64,000 nt of DNA. Origin: an uncultured Victivallis sp. (GTDB taxonomy: Bacteria > Verrucomicrobiota > Lentisphaeria > Victivallales > GWF2-50-93). Location: positions 17,130 to 81,129 of the forward strand of contig CAZION010000007.1 of NCBI GenBank assembly GCA_964540865.1, in the 5' to 3' direction. Made by a program: the position numbers and the translations under genes. This document shows positions 12,958 through 59,774 of the stretch, in pieces; positions within the stretch are counted from its first letter, which is position 1, and each line of letters opens with the position of its first letter. Below the pieces are notes generated by a model that ran no database searches, had not been told where the DNA came from, and saw only the letters and a program-made list of their open reading frames with translations.

Positions 12958-12973
12958 TTTCAGAGGTTCCCTT
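12934..12973. repeat. Inverted repeat AGGGAACCTCT...AGAGGTTCCCT (IS-end/MITE-like)
   Basis: Read directly; half-site ttttagaggttccct also near 32356. Confidence 0.6.
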
Positions 12974-13140: not shown

Positions 13141-13192
13141 TCTGCGTCTTAATCTCAGCGAACTCTGCGGTAAAGGGATTGAATCCTAACCG
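13141..13192 (+). repeat. 52-bp dispersed direct repeat, copy 2
   Basis: 50/52 identical to 4389-4440. Confidence 0.9.
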
Positions 13193-13344
13193 CAAAGACC
13201 GCAAAGGGAAGACGCGAAGTTCGCAGAGTATTTATCAGATGGCGTATTATGAATGCTTATCAAGTCTTGACATAGACGAAAAATGCAATTAACTTCCCGA
13301 AAATATTCTTTATCCACTTTTATACTTACAGAAAAGGAATCAAT

Positions 13345-13665
13345 ATGCAAGTTGTCATCGATGGAAAAGATATCGAAGTGCTCTCAAGTGACAGGAACAT
13401 TGTCGATTTAGCTGACAGGGCCAGGATAAAAATCATAAATCCCTGCAGTGAAAACGGAAAAACCGATGGTTGCTGCAGAAGCTGTGTAGTGGAAATCAAC
13501 GGTGAACAGAAATTTGCATGTACTACTAAACCTAAGTCTGGAATGAATATTGTCATATCCCGGGACGATCTGAAGCTATTACGAAAAATTCGCCTTCAGG
13601 AATTCAAGGAATTTAAGAAAAAGAATAAGGCCGGTTCATGCTGCTCAAGCAAAGGCTGCTGCTGA
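13345..13665 (+). CDS. Small stand-alone 2Fe-2S (Fer2_4-like) protein with Cys-rich tail
   Basis: IDGKDIEV...NPC...GCCRSCVVEI...FACTT; tail GSCCSSKGCC; AAGGA RBS. Confidence 0.8.
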   Translation: MQVVIDGKDIEVLSSDRNIVDLADRARIKIINPCSENGKTDGCCRSCVVEINGEQKFACTTKPKSGMNIVISRDDLKLLRKIRLQEFKEFKKKNKAGSCCSSKGCC

Positions 13666-13702
13666 TATAGAACTGTGAAACAAAGACCAAAGGAGATTAT
13701 TT

Positions 13703-15105: not shown

Positions 15106-16260
15106 TCATACCGCCTTGCTTACAGCGCTCATATTTCTCCAATATTTCAAGATACCTTCAGAGGTGCCAAATCCGGCCTCTGAAAGATCTTCATTAATAT
15201 TGGCTATGTTCGGTGCAAGGACTGTCATGCTTGCGAACTTGTGCAGGCGTCTGATATAGTCTTCAGCAGACTCATCAGGAAACTTCGGCCATGAGTTGAA
15301 ATTAACCTTCCCTGCTTTAGCAAATTTCTCCATGTTGGCAAAGAAATCAATTTCCTGTTCATGTCCGGGAATATGTCCGAAATTCAGCACCTTGAACTCA
15401 GGCTGTTCCAGTATTGCATTTGTGAGTCCCTCATTATATCCGCAATAATGCGTCCAGGAGCCGCCGAACTCCCTGGCAAGCCTTTTAGAATATGGAATGG
15501 CGAACTCGCGGATCTGCTCCTCTCCAAGCAGCGCCGTCGTATCCTCGCAGATTCTAATTCCAAAGCTGTCGGAATATATGGCGTTGCTATGATGCATGGA
15601 GGTCAGTGGCTCACCTATCGCCTCCTTCATCCAGCGATGCGTCCTGATGCCCAGCTCGAGGCATATGTTCATAAGATGGTGGATAAACTTGGGATCGTCG
15701 TATAGTTCCAGGAAGATGTTGTCACCCATCAGCAGGTGCGCCAAGTCAAATGGTCCCTGCGTGTCCATGGCATAGATCGGCATGGATTCCCCCATGGTCT
15801 CCTTGAAATAACGCATCATCTCAAGCCCGCGTGCAAAGCTTCCTTGCTGCTTGATGTCATCTGGAGTCAGCTTGGAAATCTGCGCCTTGTCAAGGTGTTC
15901 GTGCAGCCATGGCATCTTGTCGGCAAAGGATTCCTGTTCGAGGCCTATGCATGAGAGCAGGATACCTGTTCCGAGGTTCGCTCGGACAGAAGGGACTCTA
16001 TCGCTAAGGCCATTGGCGGAGGCGCAGGCAGCCCTAGTTTCACGGCAGAGCATTTTTGCCTTGTCGGTAAAAATCTGCTTGTAATCATATCCCGGTATCT
16101 CCTCCTGCTTCTTGGTCAGCTTCTCGCAAATGAAAAGCAACGGTACATCAAGCTTCTCCCTGCGCCACGCCTTACACTGGCGATCGCGGCTCCTCTGGAT
16201 GTGATCGTAGTCGAAATTCAGATATTCTTTCAGACCCTTAACGTCAAATTCCCTATCCAT
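15106..16260 (-). CDS. Uroporphyrinogen decarboxylase-like (UroD/MtaA superfamily) TIM-barrel protein
   Basis: DTQGPFDLAHLLMG...LYDDP..IH.LM, ICED, PY, HYCG. Confidence 0.8.
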   Translation of the reverse strand: MDREFDVKGLKEYLNFDYDHIQRSRDRQCKAWRREKLDVPLLFICEKLTKKQEEIPGYDYKQIFTDKAKMLCRETRAACASANGLSDRVPSVRANLGTGILLSCIGLEQESFADKMPWLHEHLDKAQISKLTPDDIKQQGSFARGLEMMRYFKETMGESMPIYAMDTQGPFDLAHLLMGDNIFLELYDDPKFIHHLMNICLELGIRTHRWMKEAIGEPLTSMHHSNAIYSDSFGIRICEDTTALLGEEQIREFAIPYSKRLAREFGGSWTHYCGYNEGLTNAILEQPEFKVLNFGHIPGHEQEIDFFANMEKFAKAGKVNFNSWPKFPDESAEDYIRRLHKFASMTVLAPNIANINEDLSEAGFGTSEGILKYWRNMSAVSKAV

Positions 16261-21100: not shown

Positions 21101-22679
21101 TCTTTCTTTCGGCCGCTACATGTATTCGCGGGCCATGCCAGCCCATTCCCCCTCGGTCCGCGACCATTGGACTTCCCCTGAGGTCATGGCGTTCTATCCC
21201 GACAGTCCAATACGACTTGTAGCCGACATGACAGGCTGGCATGAATTGAGTGAAATCCTTCCGGAAAATGCGGACTGGCCATTCATCCGTAACATAGCGC
21301 GCTTTCTGCCACGTAAGGATCTGGACAACAGTAAGGAGTGTTTCACGTTGGCGATGATCATGTCCGATCCGAACTTGGTACTTTTTGGATTTGCGGATGT
21401 TGGTGAGATGGTGGGACAGGAACAGCAGACCCGGGAGATCGCCCGGGCGATCACGTCATTGCCCGCCGTGAAACTGCCTTTGGTGCTCAACACCGGGATC
21501 GACAGCAACCTGGCAATACGTGCGGGAACGGCCAACGGGAAATATTATTTCTACGTCGCCAATCCGGTGTTTTGGAATATTGCCGCCGAGGTTACCATCA
21601 TTGGCACGGAAAAAGTCTTTGACGCCGCCTCAGGTGAGGAGGTCAAAACCATCCGTCGCGGAAACTCTCTAGTTGTTCCGATTGCGCTGGGACCTTTCGG
21701 TGTCCGTACTTTTTACACCGGTGACCCTGGCGCCACTGTCAATGCCTGTGAAAATGCGCCGCTCGCTCCGGAAGAGATTGGGAAGCTGAACGATGCCTCC
21801 CAGGATTATTTCCGCCTTCTGTCCAATACTAAAACACTCAGTCTCATGACTACTGATGAAATCGCACGCCTTTGCGGTAAACTCTCCGCGTCCACCAACA
21901 ACAAGGAAAAAGGAGAATACGCCGCCGCCTGGTTGGCGCTTAACGACGGATTCTGTCGGGGATTGATCGATCAGCGCTCCGGTTTCGCCCGCTACGCTGC
22001 GACGTTGGATTCATTGGCTGTGAATAAGAAGAACGCCGCGCGTCCGACATATGACGCCACCCGGAAAAACGCCACGCCCACTATTGACGGCGACTTGGAC
22101 GATCCATTTTGGCGCGATGTCCCCTATGTCAAACTCGACTACATGGTCAGCTCGCAGCTTATCCCTATCGGTCCTGCGGTTACCGAAACCAGGGTGAAAA
22201 TAGCGTATACCGATGAGGCATTGTTTATCGCCTGTGCCAGCGCCGACAACGATATTGCAAACGTCAAGACCGTCGCCGAAACCGGTCCGGAATTGTACCT
22301 TAAGCACGATGACATGGTCGATTTTTTCCTGAAACCTCCTTTTGGAAATGAGGAGATCTTTCAATTTGCGTCCAACGCCAAAGGCATCCAATTCTCCAAA
22401 CTCGTAACCGAAGGATTTAACCCTCACGTTAAAAAGAATGATGAATTTAAAACGACCGCCTGGAGGGTCGCCGCAAAAATAGGCAAAGACCGCTGGACCC
22501 TTGAATTCACCATCCCATTTTCCTGTTTCGAGCTGGGCGCAGCTCCTAAAGAGGGGACTGAATGGCGGATGAATTTCCGGCGCCGCCATCGGGAATTCGC
22601 CACTGTTCCGGAACAAGTGTGGACTCCACTTACGCGGAGCTATTACAATTGGAGCGAATACGGATATCTTAAATTTTAA
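18129..22679 (+). CDS. Large secreted multidomain putative glycoside hydrolase (beta-sandwich domains, TIM-barrel-like core, C-terminal CBM9-like domain)
   Basis: 1516 aa with signal peptide; LWVNG...DIAPFLRNGNNRVAV sugar-binding jelly roll; NYIHPEV...DYSD.TV..F...W..WRC GH-like core; PTIDGDLDD..W...WTLEFTIPF...WRMNF.R. Confidence 0.7.
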   Translation: MQRYCKLGTLMRHPFHRIRFLLMGLSICAISATAFEKTVQEDVYRALPLKPVLVKSDLTKRDGFHWKKGRDAVEQFNSFSPEVRGQKIEGGVLSFTVASDKAALSWGNCRGLQKKDEVQELFDGINLIDMEVRQSKPKSQWSIELWGGGNQMGKAYRSEVRAFGKSGSWETLSFSAFNPGADGFTLVLVSEADNQIEIKNLRFSRPEATGCFVRDFQVPSGGKIWRAIGSVSSGTTLWVNGKTVDTGYAGAQRNGRVISVDIAPFLRNGNNRVAVSGVFAKNSEVFFYFQGRVVLENGEIIELDAPNGWKSSPSIPENWMLPDYDVSQWKDAEVFSTKADRSDPLYPSSTMVYAFKRATLYPLIEYDGRIVYRNSDATRLWFRSEKPVKLEILIPAGLADKTPEIVWALRRIQGVDEIDVASGTEKTFNRRDKSLVFTPDLGLLPQAVYTLEATLKSDGKLLEKRYREPLMVFGRTVQQEVAGTSFEQGMERELETEIDFTDPKSPYPWVDKAGEDDANPTIAKKPLLKTPRIVRNGDMVYRETQDDSVISLFSYRFEFKHPGDWYTLELDYPNDKPRAIAVSITNPYQDGKPSKKGFMTESGPGVVTGVDVPVSNKMQTLKWIHRADRGEQTIDIVNLDKGKRAAASKVRIYHVKGNLPAMRTVTTNQRFFGAHEERPLHIGLNFGIDYPGQYEQYYKSKDVDFLGYYLYRLAWYADVANHYTQYLRFSGQNFHVIGSYQYNEDNMSYSLPNRVIGSSQVPCDIREALLKYFEANDIKAMSLVEFWATRGMKEKRDVSDAQVAAGIDTTMPVLKNGKQMATFQNYIHPEVEKAYLNIIDDLSKKFADSPAWMGVYLMPYPNQVGFGPALCTPTGSPLDVDYSDATVQAFVQDTGIKVPGEGPDRFQKRYDFLTSDKMKEKWLDWRCQRQRDIFVKTRDVLKKHRKDLNCVVGDYISVSERIEPWRMSIKSYRDSNRLFGFDGSMYKDIEGLSFGRYMYSRAMPAHSPSVRDHWTSPEVMAFYPDSPIRLVADMTGWHELSEILPENADWPFIRNIARFLPRKDLDNSKECFTLAMIMSDPNLVLFGFADVGEMVGQEQQTREIARAITSLPAVKLPLVLNTGIDSNLAIRAGTANGKYYFYVANPVFWNIAAEVTIIGTEKVFDAASGEEVKTIRRGNSLVVPIALGPFGVRTFYTGDPGATVNACENAPLAPEEIGKLNDASQDYFRLLSNTKTLSLMTTDEIARLCGKLSASTNNKEKGEYAAAWLALNDGFCRGLIDQRSGFARYAATLDSLAVNKKNAARPTYDATRKNATPTIDGDLDDPFWRDVPYVKLDYMVSSQLIPIGPAVTETRVKIAYTDEALFIACASADNDIANVKTVAETGPELYLKHDDMVDFFLKPPFGNEEIFQFASNAKGIQFSKLVTEGFNPHVKKNDEFKTTAWRVAAKIGKDRWTLEFTIPFSCFELGAAPKEGTEWRMNFRRRHREFATVPEQVWTPLTRSYYNWSEYGYLKF

Positions 22680-22694
22680 CGGATAGGCTGGCAG

Positions 22695-23726
22695 ATGAGG
22701 GTACATATTTTCTCAATTATGATGATTGGCTTGCTCTGTTTAACAGGGTGTTCCGATCCACGCCCAGTGCCTTCAGTGCCGTCAACGCCACCGCAGGTGG
22801 CCAGTTATATCGTTTCCCCTCCGTCTGCACTGGCGATCGAGGAACTGGAGAAGCGCCTGCATCAAATTGAATTCTTCGAGAAACACCCCGAGATTTTCAA
22901 TGTGCCGGAACAGGAACGCCGCGTTATCCTTGAGAAACTTGGAGACGCGAAGTCCGATATCGCGAAAAAAGAATACGCTGCCGCCTGGCGGAAACTCACT
23001 GGAAGCGCATGTCAGACATTTGCGGGACTGAAAGTTGTCAAACATGGCAATGTGCAATATGCGACAAACTCCTTTTCAGAATTCGGCATCTTCAGGAGAG
23101 GACAACTGCTGCTGACCGGTATGAGCATATCAGTCACTGTCCGCCATGCGCCGGACATCATTTTGTATTACACTTCAGACAAACACCCTGACTGGGCACC
23201 GGGGTTTATCGGTGAGACAAAGGAAACAACCCGCTCATTCTTTGAATGGGGGCCGTATCTTCGCGGCAACTCGTTTCCATTCTCGATGCGGACAAGCGTC
23301 GATGCGCAAAGTGTCCTTTGGCGGGTGCGTTGTTCCTCAACCCAAAATTCCGTCCACCGTCCTGGATGGAAAAATTGGTTCTCCCTGACCTTTCACGGTA
23401 ATTCCGAATTTTTATGGGATTGTCCGATCACGATCGTGAACCTACAGGGCGAACGAAAAGAAGTGAACGTTCCGGCCTTGTCGTCTCCAGAACCATGGAG
23501 CAAGCGCTTCGAGAAGACGGCGTCGATTGTCTTTCATCGTCCTGATGGCGATATTTCGTTATCCATCAAGCCGGAAACTGATCAATCTCCGGGTTTTTCC
23601 GGTCTGACGGCAACCGCCGACAAAGCAAAAAAAGAATGGGAATTCAATGTAGGATGGGAAATTCCGGAAAAATCTGAACCAAAAGAGTATCGGGCGGATT
23701 TTGACATGCAAATCCAATTAGAATGA
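22695..23726 (+). CDS. Hypothetical lipoprotein
   Basis: Lipobox LTGC after a hydrophobic signal; operonic spacing; start probably 22695/22719. Confidence 0.7.
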   Translation: MRVHIFSIMMIGLLCLTGCSDPRPVPSVPSTPPQVASYIVSPPSALAIEELEKRLHQIEFFEKHPEIFNVPEQERRVILEKLGDAKSDIAKKEYAAAWRKLTGSACQTFAGLKVVKHGNVQYATNSFSEFGIFRRGQLLLTGMSISVTVRHAPDIILYYTSDKHPDWAPGFIGETKETTRSFFEWGPYLRGNSFPFSMRTSVDAQSVLWRVRCSSTQNSVHRPGWKNWFSLTFHGNSEFLWDCPITIVNLQGERKEVNVPALSSPEPWSKRFEKTASIVFHRPDGDISLSIKPETDQSPGFSGLTATADKAKKEWEFNVGWEIPEKSEPKEYRADFDMQIQLE

Positions 23727-23742
23727 TTTTTAATAAAAGAGG

Positions 23743-24471
23743 ATGACAAAAATGAACAAGTATCCATCAAGACATAAACAAATGACTAGCTTAATGTTTT
23801 TTACACTTATCGAATTGCTCGTTGTAATTGCGATCATCGCAATCCTTGCAGCCATGCTCCTTCCGGCATTGAAGAATGCAAAGGACAGTGCGAAAACCAT
23901 CAGCTGCCTGGGCAATCTCAAGCAACTTGGATTGGGGCTCGCCTCATATGCTAACGACTATGAGGGATATTATCCTTCCTGGAGAAAATTGTCACCTTCG
24001 ATATATTGGCATTATTATGACTACTTTGGGGAATATGTAAACGGTCCGAAAGTCAATAATTCGAATATAACAAGCTCCGTTTTCTGGTGTCCGGGGGAAA
24101 GTCGAAGACAGATAAGCTCCGGCACGCCGGATGATGCCACGGAGATAAGCAGTATTACTCCAAACTACAATTACACCTTCGAGCTCTCCACCGCTCCCAA
24201 CCCTGCCGCAGCAAATAACAATAATTATATGAACATGAAAATGATTAAATATCCTGAAAAGAAAATTATCATTTCGGACTCGAAGAAATTTAGCAGTGTA
24301 GGCTACGACCATGTTGCACTTTGGGGCATACCCTACTATATCAACACAGCTAGCCTGTGGGCCAGGCATCGGCGAAGCCACAATTACCTATCTATGGATG
24401 GCCATGCTGAAAGTGGTGCCTGGATCAATCCCGGAGATGAGTTCTGCTATCGCTACTGGCCATATAATTAG
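23743..24471 (+). CDS. Prepilin-type N-terminal cleavage/methylation domain protein with H-X9-DG motif (PVC-type pseudopilin)
   Basis: [34 protein letters not shown]; FWCP; [14 protein letters not shown]. Confidence 0.93.
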
Positions 24472-39006: not shown

Positions 39007-40005
39007 ATGACTTCAGTTGAAAGGGTAAATAAGACGTTGGATTTTCAAAAGCCCGACAGAATTCCGGTCATGCTGTGGTGGATGTTGGCTACAGAAATGA
39101 AATATGGAGAGAGTTTTAAACGATTGATTGATAAATATCACCAGGATATCGCGTTTGTAGGAAGACAGAATCCGGAAGTGGATGACAGGCTTTTCCAGGA
39201 GGGTACGTTTACAGACATATGGGGATGCCGCTGGGAAAATGCGAATCCGGGTTTTTCCGGACAGGTTTTCGGACATCCTCTTGAAGACTTGTCCGCGCTG
39301 AAAAGCTATCGGCCACCTATCGATCAGGCAACTGTTGGTTTTGAGAATATCAAAAGGGACATCGAAGTGGTACACAGAAATGATCAATTTGCCCTAGGGG
39401 CTCCCGGCATGGGCATATTCCACCGAATGGATTTTCTCAGGGGAACAATGAACCTGTATATGGATGTCATGGACATAACTGAAGATGTCAAGTGTGTCCG
39501 CGATATGGTGTTCGAATATAAGATGAGGGAGTTGGACGGCTATCTGAAAACGGAAATTGACGGTATCCAGCTGAATGACGACTGGGGAACTCAAATAAGC
39601 CTGCTGATTCCACCTCCCGTATGGAGGGATTTCATGAAACCATGCTACCGCGAATATTTTTCGCGCATTAAAAAGGCCGGTAAGCGCGTGTTCTTTCACA
39701 GCGACGGCTATATAAAGGAAATATATCCTGATCTGATTGAGATCGGGGTGGAGGCATTGAACAGCCAGGTATGGTGCATGGGCGTTGAGGAACTGGGCAG
39801 GGAGTTCGCTGGGAAAATCACTTTCTATGGCGAAGTTGATCGCCAGAATGTTTTGAGCAGCGGTTCCCCCGAAGCCGCCAGACGTGCCGTGGACACTATG
39901 AAACGATGCCTCAGGACTGAAAAAGGCGGCCTGATCGGACAAGCCGAAGTCGGACCTGACGTGCCGCTCGAAACTATCGAAACATTGTTGTCAGCATGGG
40001 AGTGA
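39007..40005 (+). CDS. UroD/methylcobalamin:CoM methyltransferase family protein
   Basis: MTSVERV..T..F.KPDRIP, D.WG..W, LRG, DDWGTQ, FHSDG, G.VDRQ. Confidence 0.9.
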   Translation: MTSVERVNKTLDFQKPDRIPVMLWWMLATEMKYGESFKRLIDKYHQDIAFVGRQNPEVDDRLFQEGTFTDIWGCRWENANPGFSGQVFGHPLEDLSALKSYRPPIDQATVGFENIKRDIEVVHRNDQFALGAPGMGIFHRMDFLRGTMNLYMDVMDITEDVKCVRDMVFEYKMRELDGYLKTEIDGIQLNDDWGTQISLLIPPPVWRDFMKPCYREYFSRIKKAGKRVFFHSDGYIKEIYPDLIEIGVEALNSQVWCMGVEELGREFAGKITFYGEVDRQNVLSSGSPEAARRAVDTMKRCLRTEKGGLIGQAEVGPDVPLETIETLLSAWE

Positions 40006-48110: not shown

Positions 48111-48202
48111 GGCGGTGTTCCTTTATGTTTATTTATGAAGTATGTCTTTTAATAAACAAGCTACTTTGCATATAATTTTCTTATTCACAAACCTCTTCCG
48201 TG

Positions 48203-48312
48203 TGATTGCGATAGTCATTATATTAACCTGTATGATGATTATTGCAATCATAAAAATAATAAAACATGATTAACTTGATAATTGTATTGTCTTCGTTATA
48301 TTGTAACAATCA
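48203..48312. promoter_or_regulatory. Divergent promoter region with triple AATCA boxes facing the GH3 operon and two boxes facing aclB
   Basis: TGATT at 48203, 48236, 48267 (33/31 spacing); AATCA at 48246 and 48308 (62 apart); TTGCAA and TTGATA -35-like hexamers. Confidence 0.65.
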
Positions 48313-48383
48313 TCTGGAATAGTTCAATGAAAAATGATTAAAAGAAAACTCGATCGAATATTTTCTTCAATATCGGAGGTGCA

Positions 48384-49625
48384 TTGATGAGCGCAAAAAT
48401 AGGCGAACTGATTTTTCTGCAGCAACTTTCAAGAAGATTCAAGATCCCGTCTCCGGATTATGTTGTTGAACCGGTAAACCAGTCGGAGGTGAAGAGCAAG
48501 TTGCAGGAATGGGGGAGTGGAATAGTGAAACCCGACGTGCTTGCCGGGAAACGCGGCAAGGCGGGAACCGTCCATAAGGTCAGCGATTATCGCGAAGCCA
48601 TGCAGCTTCTGAAGAAAGTCGCGGCTACGGAGGTGGGCGGTTTGCAGCCCCGGACGGCATACATGGTACAAGCTGTCCCCGCGGACATGGAGCTTTTCAC
48701 AGCAATAACCTACAACTCCAGATTCCTCTCCCCATCTTTCACGGTTTCCCTCAAGGGCGGAGTTGAAGTTGAATCCATATCTGACTCCGAAAAAGTCACA
48801 ATTCCAGTCGACATCTTCCGCGGCCTGAACGCATATCAGGCATCGGAGGCATTGACCAAGCTCGGGCTGAAGGGCAAATTGAACTCCTCCATAGCGCGAT
48901 GCTTCGTGAACCAATGGGACATGTTCATTTCGACAGGCATGCAGTCGTGTGAAATAAATCCGTGGCGCGTTGCGAGGAATGAACAGATATTCGCCTGCGA
49001 CTTCAAGGCGACCTTCGATGAAAACAACTTCAAGTTCCGCGACATAGGGTTCCAGCTGCCGGAATACCCAAGCACCGAGGAGGCGCTTGATGAAGAAATG
49101 AGAGTATGGTCAGCCTCGAGCCATCAGGGGCAGGCGCATGTCTCAAGTCTTGGCGGGAAAAAAATACTTCCGATCCTGTTCGGCGGCGGAGCCAGCACCA
49201 TCATTATCGAAACCCTTGCGCAGTGCGGCGGAGATCCGATGTTCCTTTCTGATTTCGGCGGCAACCCTCCATATGACAGGATGAAGAAGACTGCTGAAAT
49301 ATGTTTCCGACACAAACTTGGCGATGCCTCTCTGCTGCTGATTCTCGGAGGCAAGGCCAACAATACACAGATAGATGTAACTTTTGCGGCAATCGCAGAT
49401 GCACTCGAGGAGTGGGTTTCCCAGCATGGTCATATTAGCATACCAGTAGTGATCGGACGCGGAGGACCAGGCCTTGTGCAAGGACTGGCGGTCATGAAGA
49501 AGACCCTTGAAAACCTGAATATGCCATATGTCTTTTTCGGACCAGACACACCGATAACCCTGGTTGCGGAATACGCGGCGAAACTGGCAAACTACAGTGA
49601 AGAGAAAGTTAAGGAGGGCAAATAA
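48384..49625 (+). CDS. aclB: ATP-citrate lyase beta subunit-like (ATP-grasp + citrate-binding domain)
   Basis: VKPD...GKRGKAG, EINP, GGGAS, FGGNP, GGKANNT (ACL GGIANFT loop), GRGGP; start probably ATG 48387. Confidence 0.8.
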   Translation: MMSAKIGELIFLQQLSRRFKIPSPDYVVEPVNQSEVKSKLQEWGSGIVKPDVLAGKRGKAGTVHKVSDYREAMQLLKKVAATEVGGLQPRTAYMVQAVPADMELFTAITYNSRFLSPSFTVSLKGGVEVESISDSEKVTIPVDIFRGLNAYQASEALTKLGLKGKLNSSIARCFVNQWDMFISTGMQSCEINPWRVARNEQIFACDFKATFDENNFKFRDIGFQLPEYPSTEEALDEEMRVWSASSHQGQAHVSSLGGKKILPILFGGGASTIIIETLAQCGGDPMFLSDFGGNPPYDRMKKTAEICFRHKLGDASLLLILGGKANNTQIDVTFAAIADALEEWVSQHGHISIPVVIGRGGPGLVQGLAVMKKTLENLNMPYVFFGPDTPITLVAEYAAKLANYSEEKVKEGK

Positions 49626-51701
49626 ATGAGAGCCAAATCTTTAAGCGACCTCTTGAAAAAAGGCGACCGTATAGCAGTATCGAACATCACCGGGCGGGAA
49701 GCGTCCAAGGTATCCATAGTCTCACAGCGCTACTGCCGCAACATAGTGGCTGGATGGGCGTTAGGCAAGGAAGGACAGACGCTGGAAGTGCCTGGGATGG
49801 GCACCATTCCGGTATTCGGACAGTTTGTGGAGCTCATTTCGGCTTTTCCTGCGGCGAAGAGACCTAACAAGATCATTGTCTATTCACCGCCTGATGCGGT
49901 ATATGGGGACGTAAAGGAAGTTGTGGAGCATGGCGCAGACTGCGTTGAGACGATCTTCGTCATAACAGAACACGTTTCAATCGAGGTGACAGCCAAATTG
50001 AAGTCACTCGCGGACAGTGCGGAGATAGATATCCTCGGATGCAACACGCTCGGCATCATAAATTCCATCGACCATGTCCGTATCGGAGCCGTGGGCGGTG
50101 ATTCACCCGATGAGACTTTTCAGAAGGGCAGTGTCTGCATAATGTCGAATTCCGGCAACATGGTTAACACGATTGCGACATATCTGAAGTCTGCCGGGAT
50201 GGGGATTTCCTACGGTATCTCCACGGGAAAGGATCCGCTCATCCTCACGCCTCTCAAGGAACTGCTGCCTCTTGCGATGAAAGATGCGCGCACCCAGATG
50301 ATCATCCTGTATGTCGAACCCGGCGGCGCCTATGAAGAGGAGGCCATGGCATATCTCAAGTCCCTTAAAAAGGTGAAGCCGGTGCTTGTATATGTCTCAG
50401 GGCGTTTCGCCGAAGGACGCGATATCAGCCTGGGACATGCGGGAGCGGTAGTTGAAGGCAAGGGAACGTCCGCTTCTGCAAAGATGGAGATGTTCGACGA
50501 TTATTTCGGTGTTCCCGTATTCGACCCTGATCAGACCAAGAAATTCACGGCGATGCTTTCTGAAAAAAGGAAAGGGGTCCGGGTAAATGCGCTCCATGAT
50601 TTTGTTCCTGCGACCATGGCGGTAACTGAAGCCTGCGGCATAAAAACAGATTTCTCACCCACCCACAAGATAGAACTCAAACCTTGGTTCATCAACTTTG
50701 GCGCCTTTGAACGGAGGCTCCCGCGTTCTTTGATCCTACATCCCGGAACTATTTTGGAACCTTACGGCACGCTGGTTGAGAGATATGTGAAGTCTGGTTT
50801 CGGAAGAATCCCAACCCGACAGGCAATGCGCAACGCATCTCATGCCTCCTCGAACGACGGGGTGACACCGCGCATATATGGTTATTCGGTTATGAACCTC
50901 ATGCGCAAAGGCTCGTTTGCGGAATCAGTACTTCTCTACTGGCTCGGAAATCCGCTCAAGCATGAGTTTGAACAAAAACTATTTGAAATGGGGCTTATCG
51001 CATCGCTCACAAACGGCCCGGGTACGATTTCCGGACAGGCGCCAAAGCTTTCCGCATCGGCCGGAAACACTCCGAATACTGCCATGATTGCAACGCTAGC
51101 ATCAATTGGAAATGTCCACGGCGGTAACGGGCAGGAAGCCGCAAAAATGCTGATCGATGTATTTGGGAAGAGCGGACTTGTCGATCCCTACAGCAAGTCA
51201 AAGGCGCCTGATCTTGATGCTATTGTCACCGAGTTCGTAAAAAAATTCAAGGAAAAGAAGGCGGTGGCGAAAGAAGCAGGTGTTGACTATGAAAAGGTTC
51301 CATGTCTCGGACATCCTGTGTTCAACAACGACGCAGTCAACTACGATCCGCGGGAAAGGGTTATCTTCGAATACATGGATGAGCATGAGATCTACAATGT
51401 GTTCCTGGATTTCTATCACCGGCTGACCCGTGGAATGACGGACGGGGGAGTGACCAACAAGGTGCATGCCGTCAATGTCGATGCCGCACTTGCCTGCATT
51501 CTCATGGGCATCGCATGGCCACTTCTAGTCGATAAGAAAATTACGGTTGAAAGGGCTGTCCAGCTGCCTTTCCTCGCATTTGCGCTCGGTCGTGTGGCTG
51601 GTGGAGCAGGCGAATATCTCGACCACCGTGAAAATGGAACAGACATGGACATGCGCATCCCCGTGAGCGAATGCATGTATCTCGGACGGATCAAGGACTA
51701 G
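49626..51701 (+). CDS. aclA: ATP-citrate lyase alpha subunit-like (CoA-binding + phospho-His ligase + citrate-synthase-like/citryl-CoA lyase domain)
   Basis: GCNTLG, SNSGNM, STGKD, E.GG..E, GHAGA, NGPGTISG, GNVHGG, LGHPV, DPR, NVDAA. Confidence 0.82.
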   Translation: MRAKSLSDLLKKGDRIAVSNITGREASKVSIVSQRYCRNIVAGWALGKEGQTLEVPGMGTIPVFGQFVELISAFPAAKRPNKIIVYSPPDAVYGDVKEVVEHGADCVETIFVITEHVSIEVTAKLKSLADSAEIDILGCNTLGIINSIDHVRIGAVGGDSPDETFQKGSVCIMSNSGNMVNTIATYLKSAGMGISYGISTGKDPLILTPLKELLPLAMKDARTQMIILYVEPGGAYEEEAMAYLKSLKKVKPVLVYVSGRFAEGRDISLGHAGAVVEGKGTSASAKMEMFDDYFGVPVFDPDQTKKFTAMLSEKRKGVRVNALHDFVPATMAVTEACGIKTDFSPTHKIELKPWFINFGAFERRLPRSLILHPGTILEPYGTLVERYVKSGFGRIPTRQAMRNASHASSNDGVTPRIYGYSVMNLMRKGSFAESVLLYWLGNPLKHEFEQKLFEMGLIASLTNGPGTISGQAPKLSASAGNTPNTAMIATLASIGNVHGGNGQEAAKMLIDVFGKSGLVDPYSKSKAPDLDAIVTEFVKKFKEKKAVAKEAGVDYEKVPCLGHPVFNNDAVNYDPRERVIFEYMDEHEIYNVFLDFYHRLTRGMTDGGVTNKVHAVNVDAALACILMGIAWPLLVDKKITVERAVQLPFLAFALGRVAGGAGEYLDHRENGTDMDMRIPVSECMYLGRIKD

Positions 51702-51719
51702 AAAATTAAAATAAAGGGT

Positions 51720-52946
51720 GTGGAAATGGTCAAGAGGATAAGCACGAAGAATGTAATTGTGGAAATGGACGGCGATGAAATGACGCGTGTCATGTGGAAA
51801 ATGATTAAGGAGAAGCTAATTGCCACGAACGTGGACGTAAAAACCGAGTACTACGATCTTGGACTGAAGAAGCGTGATGAGACCGATGACAAAATCACTC
51901 TAGATGCCGCTGAAGCCATAAAGATGCATGGGGTTGGCGTGAAGTGCGCGACCATCACTCCCGACAAGAACCGCGTCAGGGAATACAATCTCAAACAGGA
52001 ATGGAAGTCGCCAAACGGCACCATAAGGGCGCAGCTTGACGGGACGGTTTTCCGCAAGCCCATACTGGTGAAAAACATAAAGCCCGGAGTCCGTACATGG
52101 ACTAAACCCATCATCGTCGGCAGGCATGCCTACGGCGACGTGTATAAGAACACCGAGTTTAAGGTGCCGGGGCCGGGCAAGGCCGAACTTGTCTATACTG
52201 ACAGTTCAGGCAAGGAGCTGTTCCGCGGGACCATCCATGATTTCAAGAAGGGTGGCGGAGTCATACAGGGCACGCACAACACCGACAGTTCAATCAGGAG
52301 CTTTGCCAAGGCCTGCATGGAATATTCCCTCGATCAGAAAGTTGACCTCTGGTTCGGGGCAAAAGACACGATTTCAAAGACGTACGACGGGACTTTCCGC
52401 GATATTTTTACGGACGTCTTTGATAAGGAGTACAAGGATAATTTCGCAAAGGCAGGCATACAGTTCAATTTCACGCTCATAGATGACACTGTGGCCCGGA
52501 TAATGAAATCCGAGGGCGGCATGCTCTGGGCCTGCAAGAATTATGACGGCGATGTGATGTCCGACATGGTGGCGTCGGCCTTCGGCTCCCTTGCAATGAT
52601 GACCTCCGTCCTGGTATCTCCGAACGGCTGGATCGAGTATGAGGCGGCCCATGGCACTGTCCAGAGGCACTACTACAAGCATCTCAAGGGAGAGGAGACT
52701 TCATCGAACTGCATGGCCACTCTCTTTGCCTGGACAGGCGCAATCAGCAAACGCGGCGAGCTGGATGGAACACAGGACATAGTTGCTTTTGCCGGCTGTC
52801 TGGAAAAGGCGGCGCTTGACACAGTGGAAAACGGAATTATGACCGGAGATCTGGCGAAACTTGCCGATCCCCAGGCAAAGAAAATATGTAACACTGAAGT
52901 TTTCATTGATGAAATAGCAAAGAAATTAAATAGCCTCTGGAAATGA
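51720..52946 (+). CDS. icd: NADP-dependent isocitrate dehydrogenase (eukaryote-like/type II)
   Basis: [53 protein letters not shown]. Confidence 0.97.
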
Positions 52947-52987: not shown

Positions 52988-55585
52988 ATGAAAATTATTA
53001 ATCCTAAAACCTTATTTATTCTTTTATTCTCTCTGCATGCTGTTTTATTTGCCGAGGACAATTCTAGGCAGGAAGCCTCAATTGAACTTAAAGCATGGGG
53101 TGTTCCCGACAAGACTGTCACCGACCCGGCAGGTCAAGCAAATATAAGGATAGTCAAGGAGTTCCAGAGACTCCATCCAAGTATCCAGCTTGTTCCTGCC
53201 ACCGGTCTGACGATGCCGAACCGCAGCATGGACACTGTACCGCTAATGCAAATAGCCGGCGACATATCCCCGGCTGTGATTTATGTGAACTTCCGCCAGT
53301 CCAGCACCTACATTAATCAGAAATTCCTTTCCGCACTGGACAAATATCTTGAGAAAGCCTCCGGTACAGATGTGCAGGACGGCCACCTTATGGAAACGGC
53401 ACAGTATCTGACCGCCTTGCGCAAGGGGAAGCAATATGCCACTGATTTCGAAGAACGTATCCCGGCGCAATGCTGGGAAGTGATCCGCAGGGAATGCCCC
53501 TACGGTGTATCCTGTCCATATGTAAAGGTATGGAAGGCGACGCCTGCAGCCAGGCATTGCCATGTCTGGTCACTGCCGCAGAACCAGGTGGTGACGGCTT
53601 TGTTCTATCGCAAGGATCTATTTGCAGAGGCTGGCCTGCCAAACCGCGTGCCGGAAAGCATGGATGAATTTTTGGACTGGGCCCGCAAGATCCACAATCC
53701 CAAGAAGAATGTATACGGGGTTTTCCTGCAAGGAACGGGTGGGCGAGCGACACTGAGCTTCTTCTATTCCTGTGGAGCCCGTGTAGTTGAGCGTGACAGC
53801 AAAGGGAAGTGGCGTTGTGTTTTCAATTCGCCGGAAGCTGTGGAGGCATATTACTATGTTGCAAGAATGTTTCTGGAACCGTTTGAAAACAAGTTTGGCA
53901 AGTTCGCTGGGGTAGTCAATCTCGGCGAACTTAATGCTTCCATCCGTTATGCCATGTATTTTGCCTACCTGGATCATAAATCATTCCAAAGGTCATCGCA
54001 GCAGATAGATCCGAACATAGTCAATTTTGGTCCTGTCCCAAAAGGGCCGACGGGGCTGCGAGGCAGCGAATTTAACGCCCAGATGACTGGCATTTACGCC
54101 GGTTTCGACAAGGATGTCTGGATGCGCGACGCCGCCTGGGAATGGATGAAGTTCTACGGTGGTAATGAAGCCAATATTATTCAGGCGAAGATTTTTGTGG
54201 AGAATGGCCTTGGCCGTTTTGTGCAGGCCAGTCTGCTTGAGAAGGCAGGCTACTCCGAATTCGTCAACAATATCCCCGCTGGATGGACGGAGGCTTCACA
54301 GGAGGCGCTCAAAGACGGTGTTCCAGAGCCTTATGGAAGCAACTGCCAAATGGTCTACGCCTACATGGATCAATCTGTGGACCAGATCCGCACCGATGAT
54401 GAAGTGAAGCGCTGCATTGAAGCAAAAGATGGGACGGGAGCCAGGAGGAGAATACAGGAAATCCTGAATGTACGTGTTGAAATGGCAAATCAGAAGATGC
54501 TGAATATTCTGCCGGAAAACGTGCGCAAGTTTCGGTCGCGCGCCGCCGCTGCCGTGGCCATCTTCATATTTGTTGCTTTCGTACTGGCGCTGATCAAGGT
54601 ATTCAGAACTTTTGCCCGGAGCATGGTGCGCAGTGATGCGGACCGTGCGCGCGGGGACTGGCAGTTCGGCCGAAATAAATTGGCCTACGTAATTCTGATC
54701 CCTGCCATTCTCAGCATTGCAGTCTGGAGCTACTGGCCTCTTATGCGCGGTACGGCCATGGCCTTCCAGGACTACAATGTCCGAGGATTCAGCACATGGG
54801 TGGGATTTGAAAACTTCGCGACCGTTCTCTTTAGCGATGAATTCTGGTATGCCCTGTTCATTTCTCTGAAATATACGCTGCTCTTCATGACTTTCGGTTT
54901 TATCGCGCCGATTTTCCTAGCCCTATTGCTGGCTGAAGTTCCCAAGGGCAAGATCTTCTACCGGACCATCTATTATCTGCCGGCGATGCTTTCCGGCGTA
55001 ATTGTTATTTTCCTCTGGAAGGGCTTCTACGGGCAGCATGGCATGATCAATCAAATATTGAACTATGGAGCGATTGCCATCAATAACATCTGCGGCACGA
55101 AAATAACGGAATTCACGACTGTATGGCTAACTTCCCCGAGTTTCGCACTGGTTTTCTGCCTTCTGCCCTCCATCTGGGCGGGAATGGGGCCCGGTTGCCT
55201 AATCTATCTTGCGGCTCTGAAGGGGATTCCGGATGACCTGTACGAGTCTGCGGACATTGACGGAGCCGGTGCGGCTCAGAAGGTCTGGTACATAGCGGTT
55301 CCATCCATCAAAGCGCTGATCTCTATCAATTTCGTGGGTGCCGCGATCGGGTGCATGCAAAGCGGAAGCTCTTTCATACTTGCAATGACAGGCGGCGGAC
55401 CGTATACGCCATATGGAGAAACTGAAGTCATAGGCCTGCATATTTTCTGGGAGGCGTTCGGATACCTGCGCTTTGGTGTCGCCACGGCAATGGCTTGGGT
55501 CCTCGGGGCCATCCTCATCGGCTTCACCGTCCAGCAGCTTCAGAAACTCAGCAAAATGGAATTCAAGGCGGCGGGGGGGAAGTGA
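52988..55585 (+). CDS. Carbohydrate ABC transporter: solute-binding domain fused to a MalF-type permease
   Basis: Signal peptide; SBP_bac_1 motifs (LFYRKDLF.EAG...P...DE); then TM domain with GFENF, YRTIYYLP and EAA loop IPDDLYESADIDGAG. Confidence 0.88.
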   Translation: MKIINPKTLFILLFSLHAVLFAEDNSRQEASIELKAWGVPDKTVTDPAGQANIRIVKEFQRLHPSIQLVPATGLTMPNRSMDTVPLMQIAGDISPAVIYVNFRQSSTYINQKFLSALDKYLEKASGTDVQDGHLMETAQYLTALRKGKQYATDFEERIPAQCWEVIRRECPYGVSCPYVKVWKATPAARHCHVWSLPQNQVVTALFYRKDLFAEAGLPNRVPESMDEFLDWARKIHNPKKNVYGVFLQGTGGRATLSFFYSCGARVVERDSKGKWRCVFNSPEAVEAYYYVARMFLEPFENKFGKFAGVVNLGELNASIRYAMYFAYLDHKSFQRSSQQIDPNIVNFGPVPKGPTGLRGSEFNAQMTGIYAGFDKDVWMRDAAWEWMKFYGGNEANIIQAKIFVENGLGRFVQASLLEKAGYSEFVNNIPAGWTEASQEALKDGVPEPYGSNCQMVYAYMDQSVDQIRTDDEVKRCIEAKDGTGARRRIQEILNVRVEMANQKMLNILPENVRKFRSRAAAAVAIFIFVAFVLALIKVFRTFARSMVRSDADRARGDWQFGRNKLAYVILIPAILSIAVWSYWPLMRGTAMAFQDYNVRGFSTWVGFENFATVLFSDEFWYALFISLKYTLLFMTFGFIAPIFLALLLAEVPKGKIFYRTIYYLPAMLSGVIVIFLWKGFYGQHGMINQILNYGAIAINNICGTKITEFTTVWLTSPSFALVFCLLPSIWAGMGPGCLIYLAALKGIPDDLYESADIDGAGAAQKVWYIAVPSIKALISINFVGAAIGCMQSGSSFILAMTGGGPYTPYGETEVIGLHIFWEAFGYLRFGVATAMAWVLGAILIGFTVQQLQKLSKMEFKAAGGK

Positions 55586-55589: not shown

Positions 55590-55760
55590 GAAGTTCGAAA
55601 ATGCGAAAGTTCTAAAGTGCGAGAGTTGGTGGAAGTGACCGAGTGACCGAGTGACAGTGGGCAGAGGGCAGTGGAGTGAATCGGAGAGCCGGAGAATCGG
55701 AGAGGGGGGAACGACCAGTGACCAGTTGAGAAAAGTAGAATTTAGAAAGTAGAAAACTCG
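55590..55760. repeat. Purine-rich mosaic of short 7-8-nt tandem repeats between the two permease genes
   Basis: gtgaccga x2.6, atcggaga/ccggaga, gaccagt x2, aagtagaa x2. Confidence 0.7.
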
Positions 55761-55849
55761 GGGAGTCCTAAAATTCCAGGGTTAGGATAAGAAAATTTTT
55801 CCGGAACGGAAAAATTAACAAGGAAATACGTTAAAGCGGAAGGGGAGAG

Positions 55850-57859: not shown

Positions 57860-58226
57860 CGTATATTTCTCCAGAACACCTGCTGAAAATATTTGATCGA
57901 TACGTTGAGTTGACACTGGACTCTCAGTTTTATCTGGTACGAATACCTTATGCTCTACCATAGTGCTTATTCAATCCAGAGGACTAAGACCGGCAGGCGC
58001 TCCTATGGTGACAACCGCACCGATGTGATCTTCCCCCGGTTTATAGATTCCAAGTGTCCGAGTTATGAAGGAGAAAGACACAACTAGGGTTGTGAACAAC
58101 ATGTTCGGTATTTGGTATTTTTCAAAACTTTGTGCCTCTGTGCCTTTGCGCCTCTGTAACTATTCTATAAAAGTTGCGGCCCTTGGTCGCCTAATTAATC
58201 TCCAGTGGCCTGGCGCTAACGCCAAT

Positions 58227-59240
58227 TTAGCAACTCCAGGAGCTGGACAGGCTTACTGTTTTTGCAATCTCACACAGGTTTGAGTTTTTGACGCGCAGGG
58301 GGATTGCGCACTCAGGGGAGACAAGGCTGATGCCGGCATCCAATATTTCAGTTACCTGTTTCCTTACATCTGTTGCAGCGCCGTTCAGCAGGACATCCGG
58401 ATTATTCACGCAGCCGGTGAGTTTCATTTTTTTCACAATGCTCGTGGCTGTTTTTAAATCATTCTTGGAATCGAAGTGGAATATCCTGAAGCCGGCCTCT
58501 TCAAAGAAAGCCATCCTGTCGAGGGTTCTGCCGCAGCAATGCAATATCAGGGTTCTTTCTCCGAAGTGCCTGTTCAGTTCGCGGTGTATCGGCAGAAGCA
58601 GGTCCTTATAGGCTAGGGGGCTCACCAGATCCGCAGTGGCGTGGTCTGCTATGGTTACCACATCGGCTCCAGCCTCGAACTGCGCTTCGGCAAAAACAGT
58701 TGACACCTGTTTGAATGCATTGAGAAAACCGAGCGTTCTTTCCCGTTCGGTGATGGTGTCCATGAGGAAGTTTTCCATCCCGTAAAGATGATATGATAGA
58801 GTCCACGGGCCCATGACCTTCCCGATGATCAGGGTGTCAGGATGCTTTTTTTTCAGCAACTTGATTGAGTCAAGTACGGTTTTGATCGGTAGCCGGTCCA
58901 GGAAATCCACCGGCATCTTGAAATCATCAGGTTCGGAAAAGGCGTGACTTCTCTGCGTGGGCAGCGTATCGGAAGTTCCCCAGTCTATTTCGCAGCCGAA
59001 CGCGGCCGCTTCCTGCACCACGCTGAAGTACGGCATCACACTGTCAAATCCTAAGTTTTCAAATCCATATGCCGCCAGGGCTGCCATCTTGTTGGCGTCG
59101 AGATGGGTTTCGTTGAATACAAAACCCAAAGCCGAACAGCTTTCAGCGGTGGCTACGGATGTCGGGTTGATGACGGCATGCCCGCAGAAACCGTTCCCAT
59201 TGATCAGGTTGAGCGCCCGTTCCCTTGAATTCAGTCTCAT
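58227..59240 (-). CDS. MtaA/CmuA-like (UroD superfamily) methyltransferase
   Basis: EAAAFGCEI.WG, KVMGPWTL, Q.EAGAD, LHCCG, GCVNN, SPECAIP (H-x-C...C Zn ligands). Confidence 0.9.
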   Translation of the reverse strand: MRLNSRERALNLINGNGFCGHAVINPTSVATAESCSALGFVFNETHLDANKMAALAAYGFENLGFDSVMPYFSVVQEAAAFGCEIDWGTSDTLPTQRSHAFSEPDDFKMPVDFLDRLPIKTVLDSIKLLKKKHPDTLIIGKVMGPWTLSYHLYGMENFLMDTITERERTLGFLNAFKQVSTVFAEAQFEAGADVVTIADHATADLVSPLAYKDLLLPIHRELNRHFGERTLILHCCGRTLDRMAFFEEAGFRIFHFDSKNDLKTATSIVKKMKLTGCVNNPDVLLNGAATDVRKQVTEILDAGISLVSPECAIPLRVKNSNLCEIAKTVSLSSSWSC

Positions 59241-59340
59241 TGGCAGATCTCCTTATTAATTATGCGGCCACCCAGTCATCCGACGGGGCAAGAGGGCCGC
59301 AACTTTGAATGCCTAAATAAATTCCAAGCTCCAAATTTAC

Positions 59341-59505
59341 GTCAGGCGCTTCGGCCTGACCTTGGAGTGCTGTAACTTGTTACAGCCTTGTTCAGAGGAG
59401 CTTGCTCCTCGTCTAACTGACAAGCAAGCTTGTCAGAAGAAAGGCGGTACCAAGGTACCGCACTCCAAGTGCGAATTTCGCAATTCGCAGAAGATGAATT
59501 TCAGA
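59341..59505. repeat. Multi-hairpin REPIN-like element, copy B
   Basis: Same architecture as 7298-7472. Confidence 0.85.
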
Positions 59506-59774
59506 GTTTAGAAAATAACTGTTCAAAACATTGAAATTCCTATACGTGCACTTAGCCGGCTTAGCCGGAACTTCAAATACAATAAAACCTATGTGTCTCT
59601 CTGCCTCCGTGGTTGAAATACAATTTCCCATACAATTCAATTATTTCCAGAGAAACTCTTGATTAATAAAAATTGAAACATTATAATAATAATATGAATA
59701 TTTTATTTTGCAAACCTGGTGTGAGGTCGCGGTTCTTTTGTTCTTTTCTGTATCTGTAAAAAAATGGAGTAAGC

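Follow-up and report, generated by a model that had tools for sequence, protein, structure and literature searches.

Genes of the aclAB type serve as markers of autotrophy by the reductive tricarboxylic acid (rTCA) cycle, and the family described here sits in heterotrophic, polymer-degrading anaerobes without the rest of that cycle. What, then, could a citrate-lyase-like enzyme be doing in such an organism? The question is raised by a 64,000-nucleotide stretch of DNA (the window) from contig CAZION010000007.1 (C7) of an uncultured Victivallis sp. (GCA_964540865.1), in which the list of open reading frames (ORFs) contains an abutting trio of aclB-like, aclA-like and icd genes on the plus strand. 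As judged from its sequence, the encoded enzyme is an ATP-citrate lyase (ACL) by architecture, assembled from parts that resemble citryl-CoA synthetase (CCS) as well as citryl-CoA lyase (CCL). It is accessory to the housekeeping gltA-acn-icd set of the host and does not replace citrate synthase. We consider the chances about even that the cassette forms an accessory ACL-type module with a reductive, citrate-cleaving role, citrate being its presumed substrate and cleavage its presumed direction of flux.

Subunit architecture and active-site motifs

The three genes are arranged exactly as a preliminary description of the locus had reported, and the motifs quoted there are all present and align as claimed with those of CCS, CCL and ACL. 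The aclB-like gene (48384..49625, +) encodes a 413-aa beta subunit comprising an ATP-grasp domain and a citrate-binding domain, the latter with a GGKANNT loop and a GRGGP motif. Its true start is likely the ATG at 48387, which is preceded at 6 nt by the sequence GGAGG. The aclA-like gene (49626..51701, +), which encodes the 691-aa alpha subunit, begins one base past the aclB stop and is followed after 18 bp by the icd gene (51720..52946, +). The 408-aa product of the latter is an NADP-isocitrate dehydrogenase (NADP-IDH) of the "eukaryote-like" homodimeric type, matching NF006156 with 637.6 bits (cut-off 335) and TIGR00127 with 529 bits (cut-off 397).

The beta subunit matched the Pfam families ATP-grasp_2 (69.9 bits) and Citrate_bind (59 bits), both over the Pfam cut-offs. 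Its top solved relative is the large subunit of Hydrogenobacter thermophilus CCS (6hxq_B, 6.4e-37), followed by the ACL of M. concilii (1.5e-28), AclB of Chlorobium limicola (5.2e-20) and the beta subunit of succinyl-CoA synthetase (SCS; 2.3e-19), and the bit scores were 130.9 to CCS versus 75.3 to ACL. The LGGKANNT and GRGGP motifs align with "ggtannt" of CCS and with "ggaianft" and "rrggp" of the C. limicola and M. concilii ACLs. The citrate loop reads ANNT, like that of CCS, and ANFT in ACL, while SCS has no such loop ("ggiv--rcd" at that place). An assignment as the succinyl-CoA synthetase subunit SucC was rejected, given a score of 102 bits against a cut-off of 370, with every SCS-beta model remaining under its cut-off.

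The alpha subunit opens with a CoA-binding/phospho-histidine domain (49626..50525, +; residues ~1-300), recognized by Pfam Succ_CoA_lig (54.3 bits) and Ligase_CoA (33.3 bits). The top solved relative of this domain is the small subunit of CCS (6hxq_A, 2e-33), with a Foldseek template-modelling score of 0.79, and the alpha subunit again scored higher to CCS (119 bits) than to ACL (66.9 bits). The phospho-histidine loop SLGHAGAV (residues 268-275) is aligned to the "ghaga" of CCS and SCS, and its His271, together with the motifs of the lyase domain, is invariant in 13 members of the clade. The SCS subunit SucD was discarded as a candidate for the alpha protein (137.2 bits, cut-off 336). A linker (50526..50822, +; residues ~300-400), over which no Pfam or NCBIfam match extends, joins this domain to the C-terminal one. 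In the AlphaFold model of the alpha subunit, which has a mean predicted local distance difference test (pLDDT) score of 71 with a good N-terminal domain and poor active-site loops, the linker is of low confidence, pLDDT falling below 50 for residues 350-421. The full-length model aligned best to AclA/ACLY chains (E values of 1e-23 to 1e-19 over ~680 columns), including C. limicola AclA (6hxj; 680 columns, 8.6e-23).

The C-terminal part of the alpha subunit (50823..51701, +) is a citryl-CoA-lyase-like domain of citrate-synthase homology, with the motifs TNGPG, GNVHGG (His498), GHP (His563) and NVD (Asp619). Residues 408-634 matched the citryl-CoA lyase model NF004869 with 57.9 bits, under the cut-off of 212, and the top solved relatives of the domain are H. 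thermophilus CCL (6hxp, 5.4e-8) and then the C-terminal part of C. limicola AclA (2e-5). TNGPG stands at the place of DHG in CCL and Chlorobium AclA, GNVHGG at the place of GPRFGG in Chlorobium AclA, and GHP where CCL and ACL have GHR or GHK; the GH and NVD elements are retained. We take GNVHGG, GHP and NVD to be the counterparts of the two catalytic histidines and the aspartate of citrate-synthase chemistry. The roles of the residues in the C-terminal active site of ACL were taken from an excerpt of PMC10115795. The preliminary description had placed the GNVHGG histidine correctly and called it citrate-synthase-type; since Hydrogenobacter CCL carries the same histidine ("gsahgg"), it is a CCL-type feature and not one specific to citrate synthase. 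The alpha protein reached 43.3 bits with Pfam Citrate_synth_N (cut-off 83). Citrate synthase itself (PF00285) was considered and dismissed, no match at E≤0.01 having been obtained in the alpha protein or at the locus in the genome scan, and the PF00285 matches in relatives of the alpha subunit were merely partial (36-50 bits).

Phylogenetic placement, distribution and host genome

To place the enzyme, separate trees were built for the two domains of the alpha subunit. In the tree of the N-terminal domain, rooted on SCS-alpha, the 691-aa clade was monophyletic, with a Shimodaira-Hasegawa-like approximate likelihood-ratio (SH-aLRT) support of 99, and sister to a group of ~905-aa proteins (support 98). 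In the tree of the lyase domain, which also took in four true citrate synthases, a canonical ACL representative and two SCS-CCL fusions and from which the spurious ORFs of L052 and L055 and the fragmentary rows rep560, rep583 and rep710 were left out, the 691-aa and 905-aa groups came together with their split forms (SH-aLRT 100). The true citrate synthases split off with a support of 99-100, leaving the lyase domain on the CCL/ACL side, and the canonical ACL representative P0235 (563 bits to the M. concilii enzyme and human ACLY) was placed outside the clade whichever domain was used. The two trees come from quick searches supported by SH-aLRT values alone, the long branches of the canonical ACL and SCS-CCL representatives make the deep placements unsure, and the placement relative to named CCS and CCL rests on scores against PDB entries and on representatives at 50% identity. 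The trees, the motifs and the ranking of solved structures agree with the earlier proposal of a distinct ACL-type clade separate from canonical ACL. They do not bear out the companion idea of an intermediate between ACL and citrate synthase, because the lyase domain is separated from citrate synthases with an SH-aLRT of 100 and its histidine is shared with CCL.

A single protein search with the alpha subunit returned 728 relatives, the best 120 of which are 676-696 aa long and 63-100% identical. The named relatives come from metagenome-assembled genomes (MAGs) of Fibrobacterota/Chitinispirillaceae, Verrucomicrobiota, Kiritimatiellia, Pirellulales and Thermoguttaceae, and the clade as a whole is scattered over MAGs of Lentisphaerae, Kiritimatiellia, Verrucomicrobiota, Planctomycetota and Fibrobacterota. 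Clustering at 50% reduced the 691-aa family to one full-length representative, the next relatives being the ~905-aa proteins, which are 36-42% identical and carry the same TNGPG/HGGNG/HPVF/NV(I)D signature. This second family (P0125, P0272, P0347 and P0356 among others, mostly annotated "CoA-binding protein") was found in Geobacter, Desulfobacter, Desulfosarcina (as "SucD2"), Malonomonas, Spirochaetia, Leptospirales, KSB1 and Melioribacteraceae. In public records the two families are labelled "citrate/2-methylcitrate synthase", "CoA-binding protein", "succinyl-CoA synthetase alpha(/citrate synthase)" or "hypothetical"; given such names, marker surveys may miss the family or wrongly count it as autotrophy.

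The 691-aa clade is rare and patchy. Of 401 genomes sampled from the window's phylum, 5 had a full-length match, as did 9 of 401 sampled from Planctomycetota, where one of the nine is of the 905-aa type. This puts its share at about 1-2% in the two phyla as sampled, and at least 547 metagenome loci of the family were recorded. The closest named relative, 88% identical, comes from a "Lentisphaerae bacterium" MAG (L024) and has the same aclB-aclA-icd order. Directly downstream of its icd gene lies an IS66-family transposase gene (L024:10340-12079, -), which fits recent mobility of the aclB-aclA-icd cassette. The most divergent member of the clade, 47% identical, is the homologue in genome G226 (L061:8941-11040, -), which adjoins a gene for 5-enolpyruvylshikimate-3-phosphate synthase. 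Its HGGNG histidine is lost (NDYSSSS) and TNGANG replaces TNGPG, with GHP and NID kept; on these residues, the protein is possibly lyase-dead or re-purposed.

The host MAG (89% complete, 3.6% contamination, 342 contigs) encodes its own route from oxaloacetate and acetyl-CoA to 2-oxoglutarate. A canonical type-I citrate synthase gene, gltA, was found on C2 (NF004126, 606.6 bits, cut-off 505), a stand-alone aconitase gene on C32 (881.6 bits, cut-off 612), and a second icd gene, encoding a prokaryote-type NADP-IDH, beside ftsA on C127 (TIGR00183, 672.6 bits, cut-off 567). Moreover, of 17 genomes with the 691-aa enzyme, 13 were found to encode citrate synthase, among them every one of the four whose completeness is at least 90%; no match to it was obtained in carriers G401 (6.6 Mb), G404, G405 and G664 (2.0-2.3 Mb). 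The earlier suggestion that the enzyme stands in for citrate synthase is not supported. A normal citrate synthase, one of two findings that had been named as speaking against it, is present, and the other, nesting within canonical ACL clades, was not seen.

The remainder of an rTCA cycle was not found in the host, as the preliminary description had anticipated. No other tricarboxylic acid (TCA) cycle gene occurs within the 64-kb window besides the cassette. In the host genome the only Ligase_CoA matches were the ACL-like genes themselves, so that no SCS was found; the best match to a fumarate reductase FrdA was the L-aspartate oxidase NadB (725.6 bits, cut-off 629); and the POR_N matches comprised a pyruvate:ferredoxin oxidoreductase (PFOR) and a VorB-like oxidoreductase of unclear specificity, with no clear 2-oxoglutarate:ferredoxin oxidoreductase (OGOR) among them. 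PYC_OADA gave no match in the genome, and a glutamate dehydrogenase is present. No SCS-beta exceeded its cut-off in any of the 17 carrier genomes, indicating that the carriers are without a complete TCA cycle in either direction. The rest of the window contains sugar-catabolic genes, transporters, a GH3 gene and a HydB/NuoF-like protein, a content that fits a fermentative polymer degrader. We therefore regard the host as a non-autotrophic polymer-degrading anaerobe, and rTCA autotrophy as unlikely since neither SCS nor fumarate reductase was found.

The same assembly contains a second cassette, divided between C283 (L146:651-1967, -) and C198 (L020:6522-11232, -), in the order [969-aa protein without assignment]-aclB'-aclA'-aconitase-icd'-GH3'. 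Its aclB' is 92% identical to that of the window in amino acids, aclA' 94% in amino acids and 84% in nucleotides, and icd' 90.8% in nucleotides; the aconitase has 649 aa (916.6 bits). GH3' lies downstream on the same strand, and the GH3 gene of the window lies upstream in divergent orientation. Synonymous divergence (dS) between the copies ranged from 0.4 to 1.1 (1.1 for aclA, 0.43 for icd), which points to old paralogues or to a copy from a co-binned relative. Relative to the two diverged copies, the ratio of nonsynonymous to synonymous divergence was 0.03-0.08 for the cassette genes, indicating strong purifying selection. Public sequencing runs back both forms, two runs showing the junction without aconitase and one a variant icd whose preceding sequence is not in the window. 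Contigs from the two former runs bridged the aclA-icd junction of the window with 0 differences; the public-run contigs are fragmented where the variants diverge, and none spans the whole operon.

Upstream of the cassette, an AT-rich intergenic region of 273 bp (48111..48383) separates aclB from the divergent GH3 gene on the minus strand and contains promoter-like sites and a ribosome-binding site. A scan of the sequence revealed sigma-70-like sites on the plus strand at 48149-48176 and 48275-48302, which constitute weak evidence, as the scanned region held 8 promoter-like sites against 5.8 expected. A terminator scan detected no terminator-like site on the plus strand within the three genes, including the aclA-icd gap. 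Farther downstream, 41 bp past icd, a gene (52988-55585, +) encodes an 865-aa protein in which an SBP_bac_1 domain, that of extracellular solute-binding proteins, is fused to an ABC permease domain, and no terminator-like site lies between icd and this gene. Genomes of the same genus carry several members of its family, G295 alone giving four matches.

Gene neighbourhoods and the direction of flux

Gene neighbourhoods were surveyed at 80 metagenome loci, with 107 of the 118 nearest flanking ORFs scanned. Adjacency at the high-GC loci L026, L059 and L060 was taken from tblastn/search coordinates. At each of the 66 loci whose sequence reached far enough upstream, aclB immediately precedes aclA. 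An aconitase gene (acn), an icd gene or both were present within the fetched flanks of 11 of the 80 loci, two pairs of which are identical duplicates; the linked loci represent at least four lineages less than 65% identical to one another and include both IDH types and several gene orders. The icd gene follows aclA in the window, in L024 and in L084/L085, whereas contig C198, L067 and L069 have the order aclA-acn-icd. Not one of the 80 loci had a citrate synthase gene next to aclBA. The recurring linkage to acn and icd argues that citrate is a substrate or product of the enzyme, and we infer that it is the substrate.

A putA gene immediately precedes the pair, in the same orientation, in L119 and L141, which belong to one lineage, and lies divergently to it in L143, from another lineage. 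A glutaminase gene follows icd in L084, a close relative of the window copy with a PGA_cap gene upstream. A class I/II aminotransferase gene abuts the pair in L096 and L133, a dehydrogenase with DAO, 2Fe-2S and Pyr_redox_2 domains is encoded beside it in L095 and L111, an alanine-dehydrogenase/PNT-type gene is a near neighbour in L130/L131, and so is an AsnC regulator gene in L093. The gene for a TctC tricarboxylate-binding protein stands beside the pair in L132 and that for glutamate 5-kinase in L115; in L067 and L069, icd is followed by genes for phosphoenolpyruvate carboxykinase (PEPCK) and for an FAH-family protein, respectively. Furthermore, a GntR regulator gene lies upstream in at least six loci and a PfkB kinase gene downstream in nine. 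The neighbours at other loci are mostly polysaccharide-degradation genes, including those for glycoside hydrolases, sulfatases and sugar kinases.

From these observations a putative mechanism can be drawn. The beta subunit would bind ATP and citrate, and His271 of the alpha subunit would become phosphorylated and hand its phosphate on, yielding citryl-phosphate and then citryl-CoA, in an overall reaction that would be reversible. Together with the presumably co-transcribed NADP-IDH, and with aconitase in the second copy, the enzyme would constitute an accessory citrate/isocitrate/2-oxoglutarate module, through which 2-oxoglutarate derived from amino acids of the glutamate family, or else citrate taken up from outside, would pass by way of isocitrate and citrate to acetyl-CoA and oxaloacetate with consumption of NADPH. 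Cleavage is the direction that we favour, since the host can already make 2-oxoglutarate by a biosynthetic route of its own, no 2-oxoglutarate oxidation was seen and catabolic neighbours recur. The neighbouring genes lean to cleavage over synthesis, although sequence cannot settle the direction of flux.

A number of observations weigh against a citrate-cleaving role. The lyase domain has TNG in place of the DH(G) histidine of CCL and ACL. The order aclB-aclA-acn-icd would fit an oxidative route equally well, the glutamate 5-kinase gene of L115 is anabolic, and PEPCK suits either direction. In just 12 of the 80 loci do amino-acid-related genes lie nearest to the pair, and none flanks the window copy, which is set among sugar genes. 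The enzyme was present in 0 of 7 genomes of the window's own family, so that the contig could be misbinned or recently acquired. Genes not found in the host may simply be missing from an incomplete MAG, which contains a second, weak FAD_binding_2 match (C78, 61.8 bits) in addition to the VorB-like 2-oxoacid:ferredoxin oxidoreductase. Finally, no biochemical data on any member of the clade were found among the best-ranked literature matches.

In a rival reading the enzyme would run in the opposite direction, condensing acetyl-CoA and oxaloacetate with ADP and Pi to citrate, ATP and CoA alongside the ordinary citrate synthase. With aconitase and IDH it would then supply 2-oxoglutarate and NADPH and save one ATP, for instance when acetyl-CoA is plentiful. 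We hold such ATP-yielding synthesis to be possible but somewhat doubtful. ACL is reversible, and there is a precedent in D. postgatei (Moller et al. 1987, as cited in other work); the 905-aa sister family, with the same lyase motifs, occurs in Desulfobacter and Desulfosarcina; the aclB-aclA-acn-icd order follows the oxidative route; the PEPCK whose gene follows icd in L067 would provide oxaloacetate and a gain of ATP; glutamate 5-kinase stands beside the pair in L115; and the host is of the energy-limited fermenter type. Yet the coexisting gltA-acn-icd set and the citrate synthase of 13 of 17 carriers leave nothing to be replaced, the gain would amount to one ATP on a small biosynthetic flux, and the catabolic neighbours (putA, glutaminase, TctC, GntR) would have no role in 2-oxoglutarate biosynthesis. 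Besides, the Desulfobacter activity could not be tied to the 905-aa family. The same departure from DH(G), at a residue of the substrate/CoA site, makes a different substrate possible, such as 2-methylcitrate, homocitrate, citramalate, malate or another hydroxy-acid or citrate analogue, the linkage to icd and acn then being secondary. GHP in place of GHR/GHK, the scores of all curated family models under their cut-offs and the 69 of 80 loci without acn or icd in the fetched flanks would agree with this; we nevertheless deem it rather unlikely, as the citrate loop and arginine of the beta subunit match those of CCS and ACL, Citrate_bind is over its cut-off, the acn/icd linkage recurs in at least four deep lineages and a tricarboxylate-binding protein is encoded beside the pair in L132.

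The two other alternatives concern the host rather than the reaction. If C7, C198 or both derived from a co-occurring population, the coexistence with gltA would be uninformative for this host. Besides the absence of the enzyme from the seven same-family genomes, the operon was not matched at the DNA level in the genomes of five relatives of the same genus, the assembly holds two copies with the dS values given above, and the bin has the contamination and fragmentation already mentioned. We judge misbinning quite improbable all the same: C7, C198 and C2 lie inside the tetranucleotide cloud of the bin (|z|≤0.8 on three axes), the transporter genes just downstream of icd show 76-79% DNA identity to same-genus genomes, and citrate synthase coexists with the enzyme in 12 of the 16 other carriers, among them all 4 that are at least 90% complete. 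That the cassette marks rTCA autotrophy appears highly improbable. Relatives from Planctomycetes were read as citrate-cleaving rTCA enzymes in the passages seen of Thiel et al. 2017 (PMC5459899), and PFOR is present in the host, but SCS, fumarate reductase, a clear OGOR and PYC_OADA were not found there, SCS-beta was below its cut-off throughout the carriers, and genes for glycoside hydrolases, sulfatases and sugar kinases abound in the window and at its homologous loci.

Whether the enzyme cleaves or makes citrate bears on glutamate-family carbon in fermenters and on the evolution of CCS/CCL, ACL and citrate synthase. Extending the citrate-cleaving role, we tentatively suggest, as a possibility that falls well short of a likelihood, that the clade and its 905-aa sister provide the key enzyme for a bacterial "reductive 2-oxoglutarate shunt" for substrates of the glutamine, glutamate, proline and hydroxyproline type. 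These would be converted to 2-oxoglutarate, which would undergo reductive carboxylation by NADP-IDH, pass through aconitase and be cleaved to acetyl-CoA and oxaloacetate. If it operates, the shunt would offer a redox-balanced fermentation of glutamate-family compounds to anaerobes without SCS or without 2-oxoglutarate dehydrogenase/OGOR. Mammalian reductive glutamine metabolism proceeds through glutaminase, IDH1, ACO1 and ACLY, and the shunt would be its prokaryotic counterpart.

Elsewhere in the window, an 810-aa fusion protein (482-2914, -) combines thioredoxin-like 2Fe-2S, NuoF/HydB FMN and ferredoxin domains; two polyferredoxin-like ORFs lie near it, and the region, which also takes in 5314-7260 (-), seems to belong to an electron-bifurcating hydrogenase or to an NADH:ferredoxin module. 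Three PQQ_2/BamB-like beta-propeller paralogues of 507, 446 and 452 aa are clustered at 8833-15061, and three paralogues of the URO-D family lie apart from one another, at 15106-16260, 39007-40005 and 58227-59240. ORFs of 1516, 343 and 242 aa follow one another at 18129-24471 (+), without a Pfam match at 1e-5 and flanked by two divergent AraC-family regulators. Short intergenic dispersed repeats (55590-55830, 58050-58200 and 59250-59590) matched dozens of same-genus contigs at 78-95% identity and had 10-50x the flanking depth in public runs, with many loose ends at 55787-55828; they look like a family of repetitive extragenic palindromic (REP) or miniature inverted-repeat transposable element (MITE) type.

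Comparison with known citrate-cleaving systems

The ACL/CCS-CCL kind of enzyme is already known, and members from Planctomycetes were noted in 2017 according to the portions consulted of PMC5459899. What is new is the extent of the clade in non-autotrophic anaerobes of the Planctomycetes-Verrucomicrobia-Chlamydiae (PVC) group and Fibrobacterota, the lyase signature that it has in common with the 905-aa family, its coexistence with citrate synthase, and its gene neighbourhoods. Among the best-ranked literature matches, no paper on the role of the clade in heterotrophs was found, nor one treating ACL jointly with Kiritimatiellia, Lentisphaerae, Fibrobacterota or Phycisphaerae. In the excerpts of their paper, Thiel et al. 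2017 (PMC5459899) describe mesophilic Planctomycetes (OTU-14; DG20) in which ccsB and ccl are fused into aclA, with the fused genes annotated as SCS subunits plus citrate synthase and with their nearest relatives in Spirochaetes, Phycisphaerae and Planctomycetes. They regard the genes as standing between CCS/CCL and "type II ACL" and the bearer as a possible autotroph. The architecture, the misannotation and the hosts match those of the present clade, with which these genes are probably identical, to go by their description; they were read as rTCA enzymes, whereas the hosts studied here are without the rest of the cycle.

The CcsAB and Ccl proteins of H. thermophilus (6hxq, 6hxp) are the top solved relatives of all three modules, outranking the Chlorobium, Methanosaeta and human ACLs as well as SCS, and have the ANNT loop and the HGG histidine in common with them. 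In that system the small subunit of the synthetase and the lyase are separate proteins, whereas here they form one 691-aa polypeptide; its CCL has DH and GHR where the window lyase has TNG and GHP, at ~30% identity, and the host here lives as a mesophilic heterotroph and has no rTCA cycle. Canonical ACL (C. limicola AclBA, 6hxj; human ACLY) shows the same two-gene beta/alpha layout, an alpha subunit with a citrate-synthase-homology domain, and the same phospho-histidine loop, citrate loop and RGGP. It differs in carrying DHGP, RFGG and GHR instead of TNGPG, VHGG and GHP, and the window enzyme scores lower to ACL than to CCS and falls apart from it in both trees.

Type II ACL, known from Magnetococcus marinus (Mmc1_3638/3639) and tubeworm endosymbionts (Hugler & Sievert 2011; PMC3522073 and PMC6783814, both in excerpt), is likewise a non-canonical ACL of two ORFs, proposed, according to these excerpts, from genomes with measured citrate cleavage. 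Compared by description only, it differs in that its hosts are rTCA autotrophs, unlike the host here. In D. postgatei, ACL works toward citrate with a substrate-level gain of ATP (Moller et al. 1987, as cited in the parts seen of PMC12137691 and bioRxiv 10.1101/2025.03.31.646503), and this precedent, which the preliminary description had invoked, holds up. The sister family is present in Desulfobacter. In D. postgatei the enzyme works within a complete TCA cycle, the catabolic flux of which it carries, whereas the present host has no such cycle and possesses citrate synthase. Beyond the motifs that it has in common with the 691-aa clade, the sister family is distinguished by ~200 additional residues that separate the ligase domain from the lyase domain, by NHP where the window enzyme has GHP, and by different hosts, which include complete-oxidising sulfate reducers. 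The classical reversible ACL activity known from Desulfobacter may stem from a gene of this 905-aa family.

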